DNA from: a virus | Direction: 5' to 3' (one strand) | DNA length: 12,987 bases | Virus genome (UHGV): UHGV-0056732 | Shown here: in pieces, positions 1,015-12,987 of the stretch | Layout: the number at the start of each line of letters is the position of its first letter | How positions within the stretch are numbered: the stretch's first letter is position 1 | Notes under the pieces: generated by a model | Databases searched by the model: none | What the model was told of the DNA's origin: nothing | What the model saw: only the letters and a program-made list of their open reading frames with translations | Translations under genes and position numbers: made by a program

Positions 1015-1027
1015 ACAACCAGATGAG

Positions 1028-1046
1028 AAGTTACTTTGCATACCAT
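1028..1046 (+). promoter_or_regulatory. Candidate P1-type late promoter for the lydA-dar operon (9-bp inverted-repeat element plus TANNNT -10)
   Basis: AAGTTACTT (1028-1036) - TGCA - TACCAT (1041-1046); the same architecture and spacing recurs upstream of lyz (10269-10287). The late-promoter consensus is recalled only approximately. Confidence 0.4.
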
Positions 1047-1074
1047 TACCTCCTGACAACGTAGGAGGGAACTT

Positions 1075-1404
1075 GTGCTTGACACACAGGAATTAGCTCC
1101 AGTTGCTATTGCGCTCCTGCTTTCAGTAATTGGTGGGATAGGCACGTTCCTGATGGATGTCCGAGACGGTCGCCAGTCTGGCAATTTGTTGGGATTGGTT
1201 ACGGAGATCTTTGTTGCAGTGACAGCTGGCGCGGTGGCGTACCTATTGGGGCAACACGAGGGCTGGGAGTTATCAATTACGTACTTAATGGTAACGATAG
1301 CCAGCAATAACGGTCATGAGGTGATTTCAGGGATGAAACGAGTGAATATCGATAGCATTCTGAATGTTCTTACAAGTTTGGTGAAAAAGGGAGGCGGGAA
1401 ATGA
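1075..1404 (+). CDS. lydA: Holin (LydA-like), 109 aa
   Basis: GTG start at 1075 with strong SD AGGAGGG 5 nt upstream; small hydrophobic protein with TM segments (VAIALLLSVIGGIGTFL; IFVAVTAGAVAYLL); first gene of the operon next to cin as in P1; stop overlaps the next start (ATGA). Confidence 0.7.
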   Translation: MLDTQELAPVAIALLLSVIGGIGTFLMDVRDGRQSGNLLGLVTEIFVAVTAGAVAYLLGQHEGWELSITYLMVTIASNNGHEVISGMKRVNIDSILNVLTSLVKKGGGK

Positions 1405-1844
1405 TTGGCTGGGGGGTATGCGTTCTTGCGTTAGCCTTAGCCGATCGCTATTTGCTAAAACGCAAGGACATCACGCATTTAGAACTTGGTGATGTGGAAA
1501 TTAAACCGGGTTTCATCCGGGTGCCGTTCAAATACCGGTCTAAATTCCCGTTTTTGCGCGGCGCAACGGTCAGATATTGGATCCGCGATGTTCAGAAGCC
1601 AACGACAGTGATTGAAGGCGAACAACGTTGTCTGACGTCGGCTGAACAGGGCGAAAACAGTGAATGGTTGTACATACCCACTGAATATATGGGTAAAGGA
1701 GAACGGCTGTGGCATTTCAACGTCATGGTTACGCATGGCGACTCGTTCATTAACCCGTTGTATCGGATTTTCCCTGTTACTCAGCAAATCCGCAGAAGTT
1801 ACGTAATAAATCTCGCACAGGATGTGTCAGATGACGAAAAATAA
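1401..1844 (+). CDS. lydB: LydB-like holin antagonist (antiholin), 147 aa
   Basis: ATG at 1401 overlapping the lydA stop, SD GGGAGG upstream; hydrophobic N-terminus MIGWGVCVLALALA; position and size match P1 lydB as recalled. Confidence 0.65.
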   Translation: MIGWGVCVLALALADRYLLKRKDITHLELGDVEIKPGFIRVPFKYRSKFPFLRGATVRYWIRDVQKPTTVIEGEQRCLTSAEQGENSEWLYIPTEYMGKGERLWHFNVMVTHGDSFINPLYRIFPVTQQIRRSYVINLAQDVSDDEK

Positions 1845-2433
1845 GTATGCAACGGTCGATTTTGACCAGGTTAATGAAAAGGGGCTGAAATCCCTTATCG
1901 CGGCGATCAATAAAACCGGTGTTACGGTAATTGAGGTTGACTCCAGCAACCGCGCAACAACGAAAGATGGCGTTAAAGTTAAAACCGCAAAGCTGGTTCT
2001 TAACGACGGACAAATTCTTGCCATACAGGTAAACGATACTGGCGATATATCGTCTGTGAGGCTGAATGGAAAAGCTATTCCTAACGCTCAGTCTCCGGAT
2101 ATCAAGACGCTTGGTACCGTCATGGGGCAAGCGGCCCGCAAAAACTCCGCAAAATTCCAGAAATCACTGATCGCCAAAGCGAAACGTGTTGCCAATCCGG
2201 TAGACAAGAAACCGGCAGTAAAATCCAACTTTCAGCGCCTGCAAGAGGCAAAACAGCGGAATGCTCAGGTGGTTGCCGCTTATAAATCAGCGCAGAACTC
2301 GGTGTCTTTCAATCAACAGCAGATCACTGATTTGCGGGCGAAGCTGGATAAGGAGACAGGCCGACTCAATAACGAAAAGGCCCGAAATGGCGAACTCAAA
2401 CGCCGTCTTAAGCAACTGAAAGCAGGAAATTAA
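1822..2433 (+). CDS. hdf: Hdf-like protein (paralog of a DarA segment), 203 aa
   Basis: ATG at 1822 (alternative ATG at 1831); shares the KNSAKFQ block and a preceding L-DGQ-I-I region with the next gene; C-terminal coiled-coil-like stretch; stop TAA at 2431 just before the darA start. Confidence 0.6.
   Translation: MCQMTKNKYATVDFDQVNEKGLKSLIAAINKTGVTVIEVDSSNRATTKDGVKVKTAKLVLNDGQILAIQVNDTGDISSVRLNGKAIPNAQSPDIKTLGTVMGQAARKNSAKFQKSLIAKAKRVANPVDKKPAVKSNFQRLQEAKQRNAQVVAAYKSAQNSVSFNQQQITDLRAKLDKETGRLNNEKARNGELKRRLKQLKAGN
2140..2160 (+). repeat. 21-nt direct repeat copy 1 (within hdf), encoding KNSAKFQ
   Basis: AAAAACTCCGCAAAATTCCAG; 20 of 21 nt identical to 3038-3058 and codon-aligned in both genes. 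Confidence 0.6.
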
Positions 2434-2434
2434 C

Positions 2435-4321
2435 ATGGAACAGTTCAATATCAATAAAGGGGTGACGATCAAGCCTGGGCTTGACGTGCTTCCCCCGCCA
2501 GTGACTGATGATGAATATCGCGCATTAATGGCCGGTGAGGACCGCTATCTGATGACGGAATCCAACACCCTGGAGGAAATCGAGGCTACGTTCTTCTATG
2601 ACACGCCGATCCACTGGTGTGCTACGGATTTACTGGAGGCGATTAGTTCTACTCGTTTGCAGCTACACCGGACCATGCAGGCATTTGTCCGGGCATTGAA
2701 CCAGAAGCTGAATGGTACCGGAATCTCTGCGGGGAGTGATAAAACGGGGGATGTGGCCCAGAACGGTGCACGCGCGATCGGCGGGGCTGAAATTGGCCGG
2801 GCACGTAACGTTAACGGGCTGCCGGTCCTGCCAGCCATTATTCCGCTCAGTGATGGTCAGACTATCAGCATTCTGTTTCATAGCCCGACAGCGGAAAACC
2901 GGATCACCAATAGCGATACGCTGATTGCTTTCCAGTTCTTACTGAATAAAAAAGACGTTACTCATACCGTTGCTCCGATGAGTGGACGTGATATGACGCT
3001 GGCGCAGGTCACCATGAAACTTGCCAACCTTGCAGAGAAAAACTCGGCAAAATTCCAGCGTGCGCAGAAGAAGAAAAAAGCCCTGGTTGATGAAATAACC
3101 CAACTACAGGCTGACAGTGACCAGAAAGAGGATGCCATGAGCGACCTCGCGGATCAGGTGGCAGCGGTAGAAGGGCAGAAGGTAGATCTGGAGCAGAAAA
3201 TTAACGCTGTTGCATCGGAAGCGGATTCTCTTTATGAAGAGAATGAGCGTTTGCAGACGGAGATTGATCAGCTCAATCGAACTGGTGGGCGCGAAACCAT
3301 TGCTCCTGCGGGGATGACTGGTGGACACTCTCGCGCGATGACGGATCGCCTTGCAAGTATCAAAAATCGTATGCATATGAACGGGGAAGTGACGCTCAGT
3401 AATGGTGCATCAATGAAGCAATTCATTGAGGACGGTGAAGGGTATATCCAGTTAACCGATTCGGATGGCAGCGTGTACATGATCAAGGCTAAATCCATAC
3501 AGGGTGTGGACATGGCAGATGCGATCGGCAAGCTGTTTAAAGCCTATAAAGCGGGTAATGTATCGGAATACCTGGTCCAACCAGAAGAACATAAACCGGA
3601 AAACGTCGAACCTGAACCAGAAGTCTCTGTAGGTGCATATCGATATGCCCTGCAAATGCGTCCGGCGGCCCCTGGCGCAATACCTGAAGGTAACAAAGCA
3701 ATTCTGCTGCGCCCTGATGAAGGTGACCCGTATTATGAATATGCACGCTACGGCATTGCTACTTACGATACCCCGCTTTCTGATCAGCAAATGAGTGAGT
3801 ACGACCTGAAGTTATTGCCTCGCGAGGATTCTTTCGACTTCCTGGCGAAGACACTTACTAATGGTCCGTTTGGCAAATATGCACAAAAAGCTCTGGAGCT
3901 GGCCACCAGCTCACCAGACGAGTTCCGCGTAATGCTGAAAACTCAGTTTCAAAAAACTTTCCCCAATATTGCGTTTCCGGGGGGCGCTGGCACCGAGAAA
4001 ATGGTGCAGAGCATGATCAATGCATTGCAGGCCGAAGTCGGTGAGATTACTCAGCCAGAACCGGCCCCGGCACAGCCTGATGAAACGGTTAGCGAAGCAG
4101 ATGCAGAGGCTAATAAAGCCATTGAATATCTCAATAACGTGATGGATATGCAAAGCACTGACATGGCGGAGATCCGTAACGCCCGGGGCAATGTCCGGGA
4201 AGCGATTGCAGCCCTTCAGGCTGCCGGACGTTTTGAGGAAAACGAAGAGCTGGTTAACGGCGCAGCTCGCCACCTGGCTGATCTGCTGGTAGCAATCCAG
4301 AAAGCGGGGGTAGCGGCATGA
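2435..4321 (+). CDS. darA: DarA-like virion-packaged anti-restriction / head protein, 628 aa
   Basis: ATG at 2435; size and operon position match P1 darA as recalled; central coiled-coil (about residues 200-285); shares a motif with hdf; stop overlaps the ddrA start (ATGA at 4318-4321). Confidence 0.7.
   Translation: MEQFNINKGVTIKPGLDVLPPPVTDDEYRALMAGEDRYLMTESNTLEEIEATFFYDTPIHWCATDLLEAISSTRLQLHRTMQAFVRALNQKLNGTGISAGSDKTGDVAQNGARAIGGAEIGRARNVNGLPVLPAIIPLSDGQTISILFHSPTAENRITNSDTLIAFQFLLNKKDVTHTVAPMSGRDMTLAQVTMKLANLAEKNSAKFQRAQKKKKALVDEITQLQADSDQKEDAMSDLADQVAAVEGQKVDLEQKINAVASEADSLYEENERLQTEIDQLNRTGGRETIAPAGMTGGHSRAMTDRLASIKNRMHMNGEVTLSNGASMKQFIEDGEGYIQLTDSDGSVYMIKAKSIQGVDMADAIGKLFKAYKAGNVSEYLVQPEEHKPENVEPEPEVSVGAYRYALQMRPAAPGAIPEGNKAILLRPDEGDPYYEYARYGIATYDTPLSDQQMSEYDLKLLPREDSFDFLAKTLTNGPFGKYAQKALELATSSPDEFRVMLKTQFQKTFPNIAFPGGAGTEKMVQSMINALQAEVGEITQPEPAPAQPDETVSEADAEANKAIEYLNNVMDMQSTDMAEIRNARGNVREAIAALQAAGRFEENEELVNGAARHLADLLVAIQKAGVAA
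3038..3058 (+). repeat. 21-nt direct repeat copy 2 (within darA), encoding KNSAKFQ
   Basis: AAAAACTCGGCAAAATTCCAG; single mismatch relative to 2140-2160. Confidence 0.6.
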
Positions 4322-4683
4322 CACTATCAGCTATTGAGTTAATGGATCTCAGCGATAAGTTGGATGCTCTGATGTCCAAAGCGGCTACCGCGAGTGGTAT
4401 GGAGTTGCTGGATATCAGCGATGAAATTGACCAGATCATGCAACAGATGGGGTACGGCGCGTCTGGCGGCGGTAGTGGCGAGGAGAAACAACCTTCGGAA
4501 CATGATGGTGTGCCAAAACTGGTTGCTGATTTCCTGGCTGATAAATTCGTCGATCAGAGCACAGATGCATTTATCGGTACCTTGCAGGACTTGAGTCAAT
4601 ATGTTGGCACATACATCGACCTGGACCAGGTTAAACAGCACACGGCGGCATGGATAGCCGCCAACATTAAAGAGGCAGCATAA
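4318..4683 (+). CDS. ddrA: DdrA-like small acidic protein, 121 aa
   Basis: ATG at 4318 translationally coupled to darA; strongly acidic composition (many D/E, no Arg); Gly/Ser-rich linker (GASGGGSGEE). Confidence 0.6.
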   Translation: MTLSAIELMDLSDKLDALMSKAATASGMELLDISDEIDQIMQQMGYGASGGGSGEEKQPSEHDGVPKLVADFLADKFVDQSTDAFIGTLQDLSQYVGTYIDLDQVKQHTAAWIAANIKEAA

Positions 4684-4695
4684 GGCGTAACAGGG

Positions 4696-7683
4696 ATGAG
4701 CTTAAGCGATCAGGTGGTAATGGCCACCAGCATAGAAACGCTGATCGAGCTGCTAAAGAACCTGCCCGATTATGGGCGGGTTTCGTATGTGGTGACAGCG
4801 AAGGGAGACGAGGTAAAAACAGCGTTTGATATCGTCGATGCCTCAGCTCTTTTGGTATCCAATACTCTGGATGGGAAAATTAATCCAGACTATCCCCAGG
4901 AACTTCAGCCGCGCGACCGGACCCGCGCATCCAGCCTTCTTCAGGTCAACCAGATATCCAAGGATTTGCGTCCTGCCCAGCTTACCGATTCCGGTTTATC
5001 CAGCCATGGCGCGCCAATAATTGGTGAGGACAATGCCGTTGAGTCAGGTAATGGGCGGACCATGGGGATCATTAAAGCCTATCAGGACGGTAATGCGGAT
5101 CGGTATCGGGAGTACCTGATTGAACATGCGACCGAATTCGGCATACGGCCTGAAAAGGTTGAATCAATGACGGCTCCGGTACTGGTGCGCCGCCGGTTAA
5201 CGACGGTTGACCGTGTTCAGTTTGCCAAGGACTCAAATATTTCTGATCTCCAGGAAATGGCAGCCAGTGAAAAGGCTTTTGTTGATGCCGACAGCATAAC
5301 ACCGGCGATGATGGCGCTTTTTAACCCGTCAGAAAGCGGAGATCTGCTTAGCCGCAGTAATGACGCGTTTATTCGCGGATTTATGACGCAAGTTGGTGCC
5401 ACACAGGCGGCTGGCCTTGTAACTGAAGATGGGCGACCAACACGGCAACTTGTTGACCGTATACAAAACGCGATCTTTGCCAAGGCATATAAGGATGCGC
5501 GCCTGGTAAGGATGGTTGCAGAAGAACCTGATCCGGATATGCGTAATGTTCTGACGGCGCTTAATGCGGCAGCCAATGATTTTGTCCAGATGCAGGCTTT
5601 ATCAGGAGAAGCGCACAAGCAGGCTGTGACAACTATTGTTGATGGCATTGAGACAGCGGATAGCCTCGATAAAAAGGCGCTGGCGGCATTGAAAGATGCG
5701 GTAGACCTGGTAAGGCAATCGAAGGAGTCAGGCCAGCATATTACCGATGTTATTGCTCAGGGGGATATGTTCAGCGAAACGGCCCCGGAAGTGAAAGCAC
5801 TCGCGTTGTTCATCGTCGCGAATAACCGTAGCGCGAAGCGTATGGCCACCGCCTTTAAGTTGATGGCTCAACGTATCAATGATGAGTTACAGCACCAGGG
5901 CCAGGCGCTGGGGGATATGTTTGGCGGCGGCGATGTGTCGTTACAGGATATCCTTCGCCAGGTGTCTCAGGAACTGGAAAACGAAGGCATGCAAGGGATA
6001 TCCGGCGGTCTTTTCGAGTCCGTTTCCGGCGGTAGTTACAACGGTGTTGCTCCGTATACCAGTTTGCTATTACATCGGGCATCCGGCATCAAAGACATTA
6101 TTCATCTGATCAGGCTGCTTTCCCGCACAGATCCCCAGGATGAACAGCTTGTACAAGTGCTTGCGCATTTTGTTCGAATGCCTGTTGCCGACGTGAAAAA
6201 ATGGTGCCGATTATTCGGTATCAGCAATTCGTTACTTCGCGGCTTGTTAAATCACGCATCCTCCCTTGGGCGCGATGGCTTTGACGAGATAGCGCAGGCG
6301 ATAAAAAACGGAGATATGCCACCAGCTATTGACTGGTTTTCCATTCGCCCAACCAGGGTGAAAGCATTCCTTAGCGCGGCGCATTCGGCATCACCATTGG
6401 CAGAAATGGTTCAGAGGTTATCGCTCATATTCACAGACCATACCGCGTTGGGTGATCTGACTCTGGACGAGATGAAGGAAGCCTCCATTCAGTGGGCCGA
6501 TCAACAAAATGAGGTTAACTCAGACTTCTTGCCAGCATTCAGGAAGGCCGTTAGTAAAGCGGATGATGCCCGTGGAATTCTGAAGGCATTTAAGGCATTG
6601 CAAAGTCGTGTTAATAAACATGTCGGTGATATCGATGGGGTAACGGCGGAAGGCAGGGATATCCTCAAAGAGCACGGCATAACGCCAGAGTTTATTGATG
6701 AGATCAGGACGGATATGCAGCGTGAGGTCGTATCGTCCCTGCAAATCGTAGCCAGAGCGTTGGCGGATGCTAATCCGAAGAGTGCGGCCATTGTTAACCG
6801 GGTTATTGGTGATATTGAAGCATCGGAGGGCATGGGGGCGCTGAAACTCTTCCTTTCGCGAGCGTTTAATCCTAACGGCAATATTCTCCCTGGCATTATT
6901 GGTGAGGCTAAAAAGTATGTCAGTGAAGAAGAACTTGAGCAGCTTGACCAACTACTTAAGCGATTCTCATATAACCCGCAGACACGCTGGCAAATGAATC
7001 AGCGAAGTATGGGTTCGGTCCACGAGAAAGTGTTATCTGCCATGAACAGTGCGATCGCAAACTCATCCGTATCTGAAGAAAAAGCTCTTGAGTGGGCCGA
7101 CTCTTTTATCACAGAAGAAGTGGAAGAAGCCCGCGCTGGACAGAATGGTGGGATAGACCTGCGCAAGGAACTTGCTGATATTTATCGCCTGACCGGCGGG
7201 AAAATATCGACCTTATCAAAGGTAGTTCACCACCAGGGAAGGGCATATGCAAATCTAAATGGTGTTGTTGCTGTCAATTTGAACGATAAAAATGCAAGTG
7301 CACTGTGGCACGAGCTGGGTCATCATCTTGAGTACAGTAACCCTGGTTTGTTAGAGAAAGCCCGGTCATTCCTGAAGGCCAATGTTGAAGGGGATAAGCC
7401 ATCATTCGTCAATATCGGTGGGCGTGGCAAGCCTGAATGGTGCTTCAGATCTCGATTGAGTAATATTTATATGGCGAAGGTATACCCGCCAGCCTCAGTA
7501 AGTAATTCCGGGAAAATTCGGCAGAAATCACCGACTATTTCCAAAACGTCAGCAACGGAAGTATTCTCTATGGCTCTTCAGTTGTATCATGACAAAGAGG
7601 CCGCTGCCGCATCACTGATGAATGGTGACGGATTGCTGGAACTGTTATTAGGTGTGGCAAAGGAGCTAAATAATGCAGATTAA
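4696..7683 (+). CDS. ddrB: DdrB-like large protein, 995 aa, with an N-terminal ParB/Srx-like motif region and a C-terminal HExxH zinc-metallopeptidase-like motif
   Basis: ATG at 4696; residues about 60-130 carry a ParB-N-like pattern (NPDYPQELQPRDR ... APIIGEDNAVESGNGRTMGI); residues 872-876 are HELGH (nt 7309-7323) followed by H877 and E887; size matches the roughly 108-kDa P1 DdrB as recalled. Confidence 0.65.
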   Translation: MSLSDQVVMATSIETLIELLKNLPDYGRVSYVVTAKGDEVKTAFDIVDASALLVSNTLDGKINPDYPQELQPRDRTRASSLLQVNQISKDLRPAQLTDSGLSSHGAPIIGEDNAVESGNGRTMGIIKAYQDGNADRYREYLIEHATEFGIRPEKVESMTAPVLVRRRLTTVDRVQFAKDSNISDLQEMAASEKAFVDADSITPAMMALFNPSESGDLLSRSNDAFIRGFMTQVGATQAAGLVTEDGRPTRQLVDRIQNAIFAKAYKDARLVRMVAEEPDPDMRNVLTALNAAANDFVQMQALSGEAHKQAVTTIVDGIETADSLDKKALAALKDAVDLVRQSKESGQHITDVIAQGDMFSETAPEVKALALFIVANNRSAKRMATAFKLMAQRINDELQHQGQALGDMFGGGDVSLQDILRQVSQELENEGMQGISGGLFESVSGGSYNGVAPYTSLLLHRASGIKDIIHLIRLLSRTDPQDEQLVQVLAHFVRMPVADVKKWCRLFGISNSLLRGLLNHASSLGRDGFDEIAQAIKNGDMPPAIDWFSIRPTRVKAFLSAAHSASPLAEMVQRLSLIFTDHTALGDLTLDEMKEASIQWADQQNEVNSDFLPAFRKAVSKADDARGILKAFKALQSRVNKHVGDIDGVTAEGRDILKEHGITPEFIDEIRTDMQREVVSSLQIVARALADANPKSAAIVNRVIGDIEASEGMGALKLFLSRAFNPNGNILPGIIGEAKKYVSEEELEQLDQLLKRFSYNPQTRWQMNQRSMGSVHEKVLSAMNSAIANSSVSEEKALEWADSFITEEVEEARAGQNGGIDLRKELADIYRLTGGKISTLSKVVHHQGRAYANLNGVVAVNLNDKNASALWHELGHHLEYSNPGLLEKARSFLKANVEGDKPSFVNIGGRGKPEWCFRSRLSNIYMAKVYPPASVSNSGKIRQKSPTISKTSATEVFSMALQLYHDKEAAAASLMNGDGLLELLLGVAKELNNAD

Positions 7684-7993
7684 AATCGCAGCGCCATTAG
7701 GCGGAGATGCCATTATCGAATTTGATGATAATGAAGAAGTTTCCGGGCGTTTGAGCATTATCTCCGGTGACATTACCGAGGACATGATCGCTGAAGCCAT
7801 AGCTGGGGCAAATCCCAATAGCTATATGGGATTCGTTAACACCCTTGATGCTCCCGCAAGTGATGTTCTCCGAACGCTGCATCTTTACGCTGGCTGGTTT
7901 GTTGATTGGCCAGCAGTAGATGGTGGCGATGAGGATGATGATGACGATGAAGAGGTTTTTAGTGATGAAACAGTAAACCAACTCTTGTATTGA
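7673..7993 (+). CDS. Hypothetical highly acidic protein, 106 aa, translationally coupled to ddrB
   Basis: ATG at 7673 overlapping the ddrB 3' end by 11 nt, SD AAGGAG 7 nt upstream; poly-acidic C-terminus DGGDEDDDDDEEVFSDE; about 27 D/E versus 3-4 K/R. Confidence 0.6.
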   Translation: MQIKIAAPLGGDAIIEFDDNEEVSGRLSIISGDITEDMIAEAIAGANPNSYMGFVNTLDAPASDVLRTLHLYAGWFVDWPAVDGGDEDDDDDEEVFSDETVNQLLY

Positions 7994-8123
7994 CAGGAAT
8001 TGGCATAGAATTGATTGTTCAAATTTCATCCATCACATAGACGACTTCATGTTATTTGCCTGATAATTATGGCCTTAATAACCCATGTATATCTTTTGGG
8101 TTATATTCTTATCTTTAACAAGG

Positions 8124-8167
8124 TTATAAGAGCGACAATGATAAATTTATCACTATCGCTCTTATAA
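8124..8167. repeat. 44-bp near-perfect palindrome between convergent genes; possible terminator and/or protein-binding site
   Basis: TTATAAGAGCGACAAT-GATAAATTTATC-ACTATCGCTCTTATAA: 16-bp arms (14/16 complementary) around a perfect 12-bp palindromic core; followed by T-rich CTCTTTGTT; lies between the stop of the 106-aa ORF (7993) and the stop of the minus-strand 95-aa ORF (8197). Confidence 0.5.
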
Positions 8168-8196
8168 CTCTTTGTTAGCTATAGCTTTAAACAAAT

Positions 8197-8484
8197 TTAG
8201 TTTTGAGGCAATGCAACAAAAGTCAGCTCTTGATCTTTGATTAATGCTTTTGTTTGTTTGGATGTAATTCCCACTTTAGTTTTTACATCATTGTGGAGCT
8301 TCTTATACGCTTTTATTTCATCTGCTGTATATCGGAAGCCATTTGCACTGTTACTGGACAGTTGAAGTGCGATTACGTCATCACTGACACCCGCATCGCT
8401 TAGCTTAGCTATGCGGGTAATAGTGTGGCCTGCGCGAGTGTTTGGGGTGGATATTTTGTCTAAGAAATTGTTCAGTTTTTCCAT
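8197..8484 (-). CDS. Hypothetical small protein, 95 aa, possibly HTH DNA-binding, in an AT-rich island
   Basis: ATG at 8484 with SD AGAGG 9 nt upstream; segment HTITRIAKLSDAGVSDDVIALQL resembles a helix-turn-helix; visibly AT-rich flanks; own upstream region separated from the 263-aa gene by a terminator. Confidence 0.55.
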   Translation of the reverse strand: MEKLNNFLDKISTPNTRAGHTITRIAKLSDAGVSDDVIALQLSSNSANGFRYTADEIKAYKKLHNDVKTKVGITSKQTKALIKDQELTFVALPQN

Positions 8485-8706
8485 TGTTTACAACCTCTTA
8501 CTTGAGTTTATTGCCAGTAGAATTGCTACTATTCTTTTGCCTCAACGAATCACAATGTACTGGAATAAGAAACTATGAGCAATACTTACGCTTTGCGAAT
8601 ACAGAAGATGAATAATCAACTTATTACTAAAATGTTAATAATATTATTCTGTTACATAGTGTTCGCTATAACAATCGGGAGTTGAATGCTAATTCAATAA
8701 ATAAAG

Positions 8707-8732
8707 ACCCCGCCAATTGGCGGGTTCTTTTT
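8707..8732 (-). terminator. Rho-independent terminator just downstream of the 263-aa gene; also usable on the plus strand
   Basis: GC stem CCCGCC(8709-8714)/GGCGGG(8719-8724) with 4-nt loop AATT; T-run TTCTTTTT (8725-8732) on plus, GTCTTTATT on minus. Confidence 0.6.
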
Positions 8733-9519
8733 AATCACTTTCCACTTCTCCCGTGGTGTTTTCTTGCAGTTCTGTTAATGCAGCACGACATAGGTTCCGG
8801 GCATTGGCTATAGCCACACTTTTGACTTCATCCGTCATCGTGCAGGTAATGTACTGATCGAGTTCTTCATCGCGGATGATGCTTTTGCCAATCAGAAACT
8901 GTATTTGCCAGAGCAGATCGGCATCCATAATCAGAATTTCTGCCGGGCCTTCAGGGCCAGCCGGGAAGGAAACATAAGACTGTTTGCCCAGGCCGACAAC
9001 TCGACAACTTGCTTCAAGAATTGCGCGCTTGAGGTCTGACTTTATAACGGAAACAGGTTGATTTTCACCAGTGATTACGCCGTTGACATGGAAAGGCATG
9101 TAGCTTGAAATTCGCTCTACTTTCCATACGCCAGCAAGCGATCCTTCATGCAGCACAATGGGGGTAACCGCGAGTTTCATCTCACCATATAACTGCTGGC
9201 AGATAGCTGGATTGCTGAATACATCCAAAGGTTCACACTCAAACAGCGGCGCAATCTGCATGAGGTCCATCATGGTCATCCCTGGGGTACGAGCAGTAAT
9301 GAATCTGCGCATACCAGTATCCATTGCGCTCCAGATTGCTACACCATGCTTTTTGCTCACTTCTTCAGTAAAGCCAAGGTGGCACATGATGGTTTTTTCG
9401 ATAGCCAGATCAGAGATAGAAACCTTTTCGCCTGGCACTCCATCATTATTGACGGTCACTTCGACACTCTGGCCATTACGCAGGCGGTATTGAATTGTTT
9501 TAGTATTTTGTGCTGTCAT
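8731..9519 (-). CDS. Hypothetical protein, 262 aa, unknown function, directly downstream of ssb
   Basis: ATG at 9519 (MTAQNTK...) with SD GAGGAAA 7 nt upstream; the longer ORF to 9639 has no RBS; no terminator seen between ssb and this gene; terminator follows at 8707-8732. No family recognised; hhhhDxD-like ILIMDAD at residues 195-201 is weak, non-diagnostic evidence. Confidence 0.65.
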   Translation of the reverse strand: MTAQNTKTIQYRLRNGQSVEVTVNNDGVPGEKVSISDLAIEKTIMCHLGFTEEVSKKHGVAIWSAMDTGMRRFITARTPGMTMMDLMQIAPLFECEPLDVFSNPAICQQLYGEMKLAVTPIVLHEGSLAGVWKVERISSYMPFHVNGVITGENQPVSVIKSDLKRAILEASCRVVGLGKQSYVSFPAGPEGPAEILIMDADLLWQIQFLIGKSIIRDEELDQYITCTMTDEVKSVAIANARNLCRAALTELQENTTGEVESD

Positions 9520-9716
9520 AGTCTTTCCTCTGCTTAAAACCTGATGTATTGCGCCTTCAGGTGGGTCAGGAATGTTTTCCCACCAGCGAAAGCAATATCT
9601 CGGGGTGTTCTTTTCGTGAAAAGCGCGTGCCATTGCCAACTTTGGCGTTTTTTAGCGAGTTCGTGCTTTTGTTGGCGTTTGGACCACCGCTTTTCTTTCA
9701 GTCGTTTTTTACACAT

Positions 9717-10205
9717 TCAAAACGGAATATCGTCGTCAAAGTCCATTGGAGGTTCGTTATTGGCGTTGCTCTGAGGTTTACCGCCACCGCTGTATTGCTG
9801 GTGGTTTTGAGGTTGGTTTGATTGCCCCCAGCCATTTGAGGACTGTGAATCGTCACGGCGAGCGCCGATCATTTGCATGGTGCCGCCCTGGCTGACGATA
9901 ATTTCCGTCGTGTAACGTTCTACACCGGCGTCATCTGTCCACTTACGGGTTTTAAGTTTCCCTTCGATGTAGACCTGAGAACCTTTTCGTAAATACTCAC
10001 TCGCAATTTCAGCAAGTTTTCCGAACAAAACGACTTTATGCCATTCTGTTTGCTCTTTCTGTTGGCCCGTTTGCTTGTCGCGCCATGATTCATTCGTTGC
10101 GATGCTGAGTCTTCCGACCGCGACGCCATTTGGTATATACCTGATCTCCGGGTCTTGCCCCAGGGTACCAATCAGGATGACTTTGTTTACACCGCGTTGT
10201 GCCAC
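9717..10205 (-). CDS. ssb: Single-stranded DNA-binding protein (SSB), about 162 aa
   Basis: Canonical SSB OB-fold sequence ([20 protein letters not shown] ... [37 protein letters not shown]), Gly/Gln-rich tail and C-terminal [11 protein letters not shown]. Start taken as GTG at 10205 (MAQRGVNKV) by alignment to E. coli SSB; the ORF-track start at 10226 is a TTG. Confidence 0.9.
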
Positions 10206-10224
10206 TTTTCTTACCCAATAAAAC

Positions 10225-10241
10225 AAATTAATTAGAGCAAT
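10225..10241 (-). promoter_or_regulatory. Near-consensus P1 C1-repressor operator in the ssb/lyz divergent control region
   Basis: Minus strand reads ATTGCTCTAATTAATTT, 16 of 17 matches to the recalled P1 C1 operator consensus ATTGCTCTAATAAATTT; lies 20-36 bp upstream of the ssb GTG start. Confidence 0.55.
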
Positions 10242-10268
10242 AATGTATATCTTTGAAACGTAGCTAAC

Positions 10269-10287
10269 AAGTGATTTGCATTATCCT
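10269..10287 (+). promoter_or_regulatory. Candidate P1-type late promoter for lyz
   Basis: AAGTGATTT (10269-10277) - GCAT - TATCCT (10282-10287); same architecture and spacing as the lydA-upstream element. Confidence 0.4.
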
Positions 10288-10374
10288 GTGCCTTCTAAAG
10301 GGATCGAGTCAGTCGGTATTGGCTGTGAATGGGTGTTTGTCCTGGAGCGTAAAAAATTCGCTTATGAGGTCTTT

Positions 10375-10932
10375 ATGAAGGGAAAAACAGCCGCAGGAGG
10401 CGGTGCAATTTGCGCTATCGCGGTGATGATTACCATCGTGATGGGTAATGGCAATGTGCGAACCAACCAGGCGGGGCTTGAGCTGATTGGTAACGCTGAA
10501 GGTTGCCGACGTGATCCATACATGTGCCCTGCGGGGGTATGGACTGACGGGATCGGTAATACACACGGGGTAACGCCGGGTGTGCGAAAAACCGACCAGC
10601 AAATCGCCGCTGATTGGGAAAAGAATATCCTGATCGCTGAACGCTGTATTAATCAGCACTTCCGGGGCAAAGACATGCCCGATAATGCCTTCAGTGCAAT
10701 GACAAGCGCGGCATTCAATATGGGATGCAATAGCTTACGGACCTACTACAGCAAAGCGCGAGGCATGCGAGTAGAAACGTCCATCCACAAGTGGGCGCAG
10801 AAAGGGGAATGGGTGAATATGTGTAACCATCTCCCTGATTTCGTGAACAGTAACGGCGTGCCCCTGCGAGGTTTAAAGATTCGCCGTGAAAAAGAACGCC
10901 AGCTTTGCCTGACGGGACTGGTCAATGAATAA
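10375..10932 (+). CDS. lyz: SAR endolysin (T4-type lysozyme with N-terminal signal-anchor-release domain), 185 aa
   Basis: ATG at 10375 with GAGG SD; N-terminus MKGKTAAGGGAICAIAVMITIVMGNG is a Gly/Ala-rich weakly hydrophobic SAR helix; Cys13, Cys44, Cys51 with Glu42 and Thr57 reproduce the disulfide-isomerisation arrangement described for P1 Lyz; lysozyme core (NAEGCRRDPYMCPAGVWTDGIGNTHGV). Confidence 0.9.
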   Translation: MKGKTAAGGGAICAIAVMITIVMGNGNVRTNQAGLELIGNAEGCRRDPYMCPAGVWTDGIGNTHGVTPGVRKTDQQIAADWEKNILIAERCINQHFRGKDMPDNAFSAMTSAAFNMGCNSLRTYYSKARGMRVETSIHKWAQKGEWVNMCNHLPDFVNSNGVPLRGLKIRREKERQLCLTGLVNE

Positions 10933-11179
10933 ACTCCGGCAGCTCCGCCGACTTTCGACAATGAAGTTATCGCTGGCGGCGATAGTTTTCGACTCGATTT
11001 TCATGGCGGTATATGTGCTCAATGAGACGTGGCCACTGGAACCGCTATTGTATGCCGGGCTTCGGCTGTGCCTGACATTTTTGAGCATGGCTGCAAGATT
11101 GATGCAGCAGAAAGAAACCGCTTCAGATTGTCCACGCCGCGCGGTGCGCAAATATATGGCACGCAGGCGAAGGCGATAA
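10925..11179 (+). CDS. Hypothetical small membrane protein, 84 aa, coupled to lyz; candidate lysis accessory (holin/antiholin-like)
   Basis: ATG at 10925 overlaps the lyz stop (ATGAATAA); two hydrophobic segments (LSLAAIVFDSIFMAVYVL; LLYAGLRLCLTFLSMAARL); Arg-rich C-terminus ARRRRR; followed by a terminator. Confidence 0.5.
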   Translation: MNKLRQLRRLSTMKLSLAAIVFDSIFMAVYVLNETWPLEPLLYAGLRLCLTFLSMAARLMQQKETASDCPRRAVRKYMARRRRR

Positions 11180-11192
11180 TAGTTAACGAGAA

Positions 11193-11218
11193 CCCCGGCA
11201 GCCGCCGGGGTTATTTTT
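11193..11218 (+). terminator. Rho-independent terminator ending the lyz transcription unit
   Basis: Stem CCCCGGC(11193-11199)/GCCGGGG(11204-11210), loop AGCC, then TTATTTTT (11211-11218); sits between convergent lyz-side genes and pro. Confidence 0.65.
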
Positions 11219-11223
11219 GGTGG

Positions 11224-12987
<1,764 letters not shown>

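Follow-up and report, generated by a model that had tools for sequence, protein, structure and literature searches.

Morons of temperate phages are autonomous units of promoter, gene and terminator that have a deviant composition and occur in some relatives only. In P1-like phage-plasmids, isaA-insB-insA-isaB is one of eight highly variable regions and has a low G+C content (PMC9603915). This region, variable region 2, holds isaB and the insertion sequence (IS) IS1 in P1 (annotation NC_005856) and nmpC in P7. Here we analyzed a 12,987-nucleotide stretch of UHGV virus genome UHGV-0056732, referred to below as the window, in which an AT-rich island at 7994-8700 carries a single gene encoding a 95-amino-acid protein (ORF95) and a long 3' hairpin. 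The island resembles variable region 2 in its slot (hxr to isaA/ssb), in its low G+C content and in lying at a hot spot for alternative cargo, but it contains no IS element, shows no similarity to isaB, is rare (~3%) and carries an undescribed gene. It resembles morons in being a single gene of deviant guanine-plus-cytosine (GC) content with its own 3' hairpin, placed between backbone operons and missing in most relatives; moreover, a homologue in Xenorhabdus and Photorhabdus occupies the classical moron site between lysis and terminase genes. In contrast to morons, the cassette has a putative promoter; its very stable hairpin lies 28 nt past the stop codon but lacks a clear U-tract. The hot spot and its low GC are already published; what is new is that the cassette gene belongs to a conserved, undescribed family.

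Taken together, we lean toward reading the island as a moron-type cassette that encodes a small accessory DNA-binding protein from its own transcription unit. According to this model, a cassette made up of an AT-rich promoter region, ORF95 and the long 3' hairpin would have recombined into the hxr/isaA slot of one sublineage of P1-like phage-plasmids. ORF95, which is small, basic and helical with a tri-helical core resembling a helix-turn-helix (HTH), would bind DNA as an accessory transcription or DNA-binding factor, and its own unit would make its expression independent of the late (dar) and C1-controlled (ssb-isaA) operons on either side.

Composition and distribution of the island

The first-pass annotation described a sharp drop to AT-rich DNA here, and sliding-window GC analysis bears it out. 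The GC content of 7994-8700 is 34.5%, against 48.2 +/- 3.5% (mean and standard deviation) for 707-bp windows of the related plasmid pO111_2, of which only 0.67% are as AT-rich. In 300-bp windows, the GC fraction is 0.31-0.40 over ~7950-8850 and 0.45-0.53 on both flanks. ORF95 itself has 39.9% GC, and the parts upstream (8485-8700) and downstream (7994-8196) of it have 31.0% and 30.5%, respectively. For comparison, the cargo of relatives has 36.6% GC in the isaB segment of P1 and 38.9% in P7. According to annotated relatives, the gene order is ddrB (4696-7683, plus strand), hxr, the island, isaA and ssb (9717-10226, minus strand). The features of the locus are as follows.

7673-7993, plus strand: hxr, which ends the darA/ddrB operon and flanks the cassette on the left; phrog_2292 match at 7e-59
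7994-8122, no strand: AT-rich spacer from the hxr stop to the palindrome, GC ~30%, without a supported feature
8123-8168, minus strand: 46-bp palindrome, probably the 3' terminator or stabilizing hairpin of ORF95
8197-8484, minus strand: ORF95, 95 amino acids, 10.5 kDa, isoelectric point (pI) 9.5; five predicted helices, HTH-like fold; undescribed family
8494-8499, minus strand: Shine-Dalgarno sequence AAGAGG, 9 nt upstream of the ORF95 ATG, read from sequence
8500-8702, minus strand: AT-rich 5' region of ORF95, presumed location of its promoter; weak sigma-70-like candidates
8703-8730, no strand: bidirectional intrinsic terminator of the P1-like backbone, which ends isaA and, where the island is missing, also hxr
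8731-9513, minus strand: isaA, right flank; phrog_2326 match at 2e-147, with which the annotations of relatives agree

The 1.5 kb around the island matched P1-like phage-plasmids (Punavirus), comprising 20 phage records and 483 plasmids, mostly from Escherichia. Positions 1024-12987 of the window are 99% identical to pO111_2 of E. coli O111:H- 11128, and positions 1-1023 gave no match to that plasmid at the megablast level. The island is carried by 15 of the 483 P1-like plasmids (~3%) and by one phage isolate (two database records), and the 97% of plasmids that lack it keep both flanks at 95-99% identity. The suggestion that the island is horizontally acquired cargo is thereby supported, and alignment of the interval across P1-like genomes, which had been proposed as a check, confirmed that it is not universally conserved, P1 and P7 holding other cargo. 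Among 5426 complete E. coli genomes in RefSeq, 25 contain the island, in every case on a plasmid. Carriers are mostly Shiga-toxin-producing E. coli (STEC) of serotypes O111:H8, O157:H7 and O103:H2, and further include one porcine enterotoxigenic E. coli and E. albertii from birds. These STEC serotypes and E. albertii are attaching-effacing pathogens positive for the locus of enterocyte effacement. The island copies are at least 98.9% identical to one another, and with a divergence of at most ~1% the island looks like one recent acquisition. The exact ORF95 protein was found on at least 1000 contigs; the 5.5-Mb length of one of them points to integration into a chromosome or to an assembly join. 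A second island copy within a plasmid was considered and rejected, because the apparent "2 places per record" arose from the palindrome matching itself on the other strand.

The left breakpoint lies at 7944-7950 in every pairwise comparison (P1, SJ46, 813R1, a second P1 isolate and P7), inside a run of poly-Asp codons near the end of hxr. In the same comparisons, the right breakpoint lies at 8709 or 8731, where DNA identity of 96-98% to P1, SJ46 and 813R1 on the isaA side begins. Between these breakpoints, relatives contain nothing, isaB with IS1 (P1), an nmpC porin segment (P7) or a gene for 356 amino acids (813R1-type), in agreement with the earlier remark that this is where P1 carries IS1. 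In SJ46, the alignment runs from hxr through a spacer of ~40 bp and the same terminator into isaA, and the entire AT-rich segment is missing. In a rough estimate from 60 plasmids taken at even intervals from the 483, the slot was empty in ~28%, held the 356-amino-acid cargo in ~25% and had mostly other forms in the remainder. The interval combines the two properties of variable region 2 cargo, namely a variable slot between conserved flanks and a low G+C content relative to the backbone, and it is very likely a cargo cassette in this known hot spot. ORF95 therefore represents one more alternative cargo in a hot spot that in relatives is occupied by IS1 or a porin gene, with a Tad2-like anti-defense gene in the neighboring slot.

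The left breakpoints of the P1, P7, SJ46 and 813R1 variants fall within 7 bp of one another in a GAT/GAC/GAG codon repeat (7925-7950), a simple repeat at which the hot spot may recombine. The isaA-ssb junction (9510-9516 in the window) is a second variable slot, with a clean 684-bp difference from SJ46 and Ro157c2YLVW. In these two (L001 4921-5598 and L002 4204-5049, respectively), the slot holds a gene with a Tad2-like C-terminal domain (Thoeris anti-defense 2, PF11195), which is missing from the window and from pO111_2.

ORF95 and its protein family

The 95-amino-acid frame with a good Shine-Dalgarno sequence reported by the first-pass annotation was found again at 8197-8484 on the minus strand. 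Its ATG follows AAGAGG at a distance of 9 nt, and two codons upstream of this start an in-frame TAA bars an extension. ORF95 matched nothing in Pfam, NCBIfam or PADLOC, and its one PHROGs match, to part of a virion RNA polymerase profile of 3406 positions, was at chance level (E 0.033). A word-indexed search with ORF95 returned only near-identical Escherichia proteins and one metagenomic protein of 56% identity. An exhaustive profile search retrieved 139 family representatives at E<=1e-3, including 105 at E<=1e-10, nearly all of which are single-domain proteins of ~90-130 amino acids. Ninety family members showed no consistent Pfam or PHROG match. Within these 90 sequences, R24 is invariant (90/90) and R17 nearly so (88/90); G19, A39, S46, Y52 and L81 are highly conserved too. 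The family carries the motifs S-x-P-x-S-R-A-G and K-T-K-V-x-I-T-x-x-Q-x-x-A-L-I-x-D-Q. No relevant literature was found for the ORF95 protein accession or for pO111_2.

AlphaFold2, run on a 37-sequence alignment, gave a confident five-helix model (pLDDT 86), and fold comparison revealed a tri-helical HTH-like core, with sigma region 4 among the matches. Therefore, the HTH-like segment noted earlier is supported by structure prediction and fold comparison, but not by sequence family models. We compared ORF95 with small tri-helical HTH domains of the DeoR/SorC N-terminal, sigma-70 region 4 and LuxR-type, Mu Mor/C, Hin/resolvase and G20c small terminase N-terminal kinds. It differs from all of them in having no detectable sequence relationship to them, a turn of ~9 residues, an extra C-terminal helix, and conserved residues that lie off the putative recognition helix.

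ORF95 had also been considered a possible counterpart of P1 Hxr. This did not hold: Hxr (phrog_2292) is encoded by the preceding gene at 7673-7993 and is unrelated in sequence, BLASTP giving no alignment between ORF95 and the window Hxr at E<=100 and ORF95 having no phrog_2292 match. Hxr is a very acidic product of the backbone (pI 4.05), and ORF95 a basic cargo protein (pI 9.5). ORF95 shows no similarity to IsaB either.

Genomic contexts of ORF95 homologues

The settings of homologues were established by tblastn and contig look-ups; the related-loci search, made with a narrow alignment, comprised 6 loci. Plasmid-borne homologues were located in Aliivibrio and Aeromonas and, on megaplasmids that include pQBR57, in Pseudomonas. 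A Xenorhabdus prophage and its match in Photorhabdus each have the homologue as a single opposite-strand gene that separates the lysis cassette from the terminase genes. A Comamonas homologue adjoins integrases and transposases, and a Stenotrophomonas homologue adjoins TrbI and a STAND NTPase. In metagenome-assembled genomes (MAGs), the homologue adjoins a ThsB-like TIR protein and an integrase (Alteromonadales) or follows a type II methyltransferase and a control protein (Methylococcaceae). In a Piscirickettsiaceae MAG (L022 5860-6375), it separates grpE from dnaK and immediately follows a sigma-32-type promoter (CCTTGAAA...CCCCCAT), and from this position it would be co-transcribed with dnaK-dnaJ under heat shock.

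An all-against-all comparison of the neighbors at 15 loci revealed no conserved partner gene, and at these loci the GC content of the homologue is usually below that of its surroundings. Judged by these neighborhoods, the family appears to behave as a solo accessory gene, or moron. ORF95 thus represents a small conserved family that has no entry in Pfam, PHROGs, NCBIfam or PADLOC and recurs alone in the accessory regions of mobile elements. At four of the 15 loci (L004 234-536, L016 5494-5853, L025 5537-5911 and L026 3216-3572), a same-strand gene for 100-125 amino acids directly precedes the homologue. Two of these four genes encode HTH proteins, the first of the Xre/control-protein type and the second resembling sigma-70 region 4 at its C-terminus; the four are mutually unrelated, and the window has no counterpart.

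The 3' hairpin, the terminator and the 5' region of ORF95

The first-pass annotation listed a palindrome of 44 bp. The palindrome is present and measures 46 bp (8123-8168), with arms of 23+23 nt that are 91% complementary and have no spacer, and it starts 28 nt downstream of the ORF95 stop codon. As minus-strand RNA, which corresponds to the ORF95 mRNA, it folds into an uninterrupted 21-bp stem with a 4-nt loop (-36 kcal/mol, z -7.7), whereas the plus strand folds with internal loops at -27.6 kcal/mol. The two mismatches of the palindrome are C.A and A.C on the plus strand and become G.U pairs on the minus strand, hence the uninterrupted stem. No other occurrence of the half-site was found anywhere in the window. 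At the Pseudomonas and Comamonas loci, ordinary short GC hairpins follow right after the stop codons of the homologues; the other loci have none. The palindrome is probably a 3' terminator or stabilizer of the ORF95 mRNA and not an operator, because it lies downstream of the gene, its half-site is not repeated upstream, its G.U pairs are specific to the mRNA strand, and the hairpins of homologues occupy the same position. A regulatory operator, as proposed before, was rejected for lack of further half-sites in the window and of conservation at homologous loci.

An attC site of an integron cassette was also rejected. Such a site has the inverse core RYYYAAC at the 5' end and the core GTTRRRY at the 3' end; either strand of the palindrome reads GTTATAAG...CTTATAAC, an arrangement with the wrong order and a mismatched R/Y pattern. 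An Rfam scan gave chance-level matches only, driven by the hairpins.

The GC-stem terminator on the other side had been taken as punctuation of the island itself. Its stem, CCCGCC-AATT-GGCGGG at 8709-8724, has A-rich and T-rich flanks and scores on both strands, and it is conserved between hxr and isaA in the island-less SJ46, which identifies it as backbone sequence. The annotation is therefore to be corrected on two points: hxr precedes the island and is not its gene, and the GC-stem terminator belongs to the backbone. Read-through from isaA into ORF95 would be limited, the isaA terminator being immediately upstream, and the promoter of ORF95 would accordingly have to be sought in 8500-8700, as implied by the position of that backbone terminator.

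Searches for known control sites gave the following results. With up to 3 mismatches to the C1 operator (ATTGCTCTAATAAATTT), the sole site in the window is Ossb at 10225-10241, and none lies in the island. The left half of the C1 operator, ATTGCTC, occurs at 8576-8570 on the minus strand and overlaps a weak candidate ORF95 promoter (TTGCTC-17-TACATT, read by eye); this match is probably due to chance, because only 10 of 17 positions fit the consensus. A P1 late promoter was rejected: AAGTGATTA at 8740-8732 resembles the late -22 box, but it has no -10 and lies inside the 3' end and stop codon of isaA.

Possible functions of ORF95

Several results weigh against DNA binding by a protein made from its own unit. 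Upstream of ORF95 on the minus strand, no sigma-70 site reaches 9 of 12 consensus matches and there are weak candidates only; the hairpin lacks a good U-tract, and no candidate target site for ORF95 was identified. A profile search of the PDB found no solved structure related by sequence, and none of the HTH family sequence models matched ORF95 or its family. In the predicted structure, the putative HTH helices are joined by a longer turn than in canonical motifs, and the putative recognition helix (residues 54-69) varies on its surface. Helix 2, the loop and helix 5 carry the invariant residues, an arrangement that would also fit a conserved protein-protein interface. Whether ORF95 acts by DNA binding as an accessory regulator or factor from its own unit is about an even call.

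The main rival holds that ORF95 is an anti-defense or host-takeover factor that binds a protein (a defense protein, RNA polymerase or sigma) and no DNA. We consider this fairly unlikely. The cassette directly follows the Dar anti-restriction operon, SJ46 and Ro157c2YLVW carry the gene with the Tad2-like Thoeris anti-defense domain in the next slot, and homologues adjoin a ThsB-like TIR protein, a STAND NTPase or a type II methyltransferase with its control protein; the position of the invariant residues off the putative recognition helix and the presence of sigma region 4 among the fold matches point the same way. However, no PADLOC or anti-defense model matched ORF95, no defense system consistently co-occurs with the family, and accessory regions of mobile elements are rich in defense genes regardless, whereas the basic pI and the HTH-like fold favor nucleic-acid binding. 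It is distinctly unlikely, in our view, that ORF95 is the first member of an undescribed family of HTH proteins, transferred horizontally as single genes, with which mobile elements reprogram host transcription or counter a defense system. This idea draws on single-gene insertions between hxr and isaA in P1-like elements, between lysis and terminase genes in lambdoid prophages, in megaplasmids, in integrative and conjugative elements and, in one genome, between the sigma-32 promoter and dnaK, and on the Escherichia carriers being mostly plasmids of Shiga-toxin-producing serotypes (O111:H8, O157:H7, O103:H2) and of E. albertii. Should ORF95 turn out to be a regulator or anti-defense factor, it would be relevant to the effects that P1-like plasmids of STEC and E. 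albertii have on their hosts.

A role of ORF95 in plasmid or phage DNA handling (StbA-, KorA-, ParB- or small-terminase-like), serving stability or packaging, is very unlikely. Single family members weakly match ParB-like and small-terminase PHROGs and many homologues are borne by megaplasmids, but neither iterons nor direct repeats were detected in the island or its vicinity, and no partner ATPase or terminase is conserved beside the homologues; P1-like elements have complete systems for both par and pac, ORF95 is missing from 97% of them, and one homologue is chromosomal, between grpE and dnaK. A reading of ORF95 as a small repressor akin to Hxr, for which the neighboring 46-bp palindrome is the binding site, and of palindrome and GC terminator as the punctuation of the island, would agree with the HTH-like fold and with the highly non-random palindrome. 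This reading is highly improbable, since Hxr is a different and unrelated gene, the palindrome lies 3' of the gene, is not repeated upstream, is perfect only as minus-strand RNA and is not conserved at homologous loci, and the GC terminator belongs to the backbone. Finally, the island might be decaying junk, either an IS remnant, a remnant of a miniature inverted-repeat transposable element (MITE), or a spurious frame in AT-rich DNA. In this direction point four of five ORF substitutions that are non-synonymous within the shallow carrier clade, an apparent frameshift in one carrier (H65) and a promoter that is weak or was not found. Against it stand the deep conservation of the family with its invariant residues, the confident fold prediction, the fact that 14 of 15 plasmids have an intact frame, and the occurrence of the identical protein on at least 1000 contigs, as well as borders without terminal inverted repeats, target duplications or a transposase, so that we find junk barely credible. 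A moron-type cassette with a DNA-binding product is the reading we retain.

The hxr gene and minor features of the window

The window Hxr (106 amino acids) is 99% identical to P1 Hxr over residues 1-80, and the homology of hxr to P1, SJ46, 813R1 and P7 ends at the left breakpoint. From ~7949, the 3' end of hxr (the last ~15 codons, past the poly-Asp run) is specific to this cassette variant; beyond the poly-Asp run, it changes with each cargo variant. The P1 annotation calls Hxr a possible repressor and Xre homologue. The window Hxr has no Pfam HTH match (only a chance match to Importin_rep_4, E 0.59), a pI of 4.05 and a poly-Asp/Glu tail, and the repressor label looks weak.

The spacer at 7994-8122 yielded nothing beyond weak matches to promoters on the plus strand and a small hydrophobic ORF that lacks support. 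No direct repeats were detected in 7900-8800, and the only strong inverted repeats of the island region are the internal palindrome and the backbone terminator. An IS or MITE was rejected as the origin of the island, there being no terminal inverted repeats at the borders, no target duplications and no transposase ORF.

Two small hydrophobic frames lie on the plus strand. One, at 8070-8167, has 32 codons counted from its ATG and ends within the palindrome. The other, ORF36 (8575-8685, 36 amino acids, MSNTYALRIQKMNNQLITKMLIILFCYIVFAITIGS), is followed by the terminator, is antisense to the 5' region of ORF95 and has no homologues outside the island. These frames could be type-I-toxin-like or chance products of AT-rich DNA; in the search for a type I toxin-antitoxin pair, there was no Rfam match above chance. 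A segment of the ORF95 coding region (8317-8330, TTCATCTGCTGTAT) and one of its upstream region (8599-8612, ATACAGAAGATGAA) are complementary at 93% over 14 nt, a pairing that a rough estimate places near chance expectation.

The 97.9-kb pO111_2 has only two regions of <=38% GC, that is, one besides the island. This other region (25451-27007 of pO111_2) contains a serine acetyltransferase gene and a tail-fibre-assembly fragment, and next to it lies a second AT-rich stretch of the window (~600-1050, GC 0.36-0.40).
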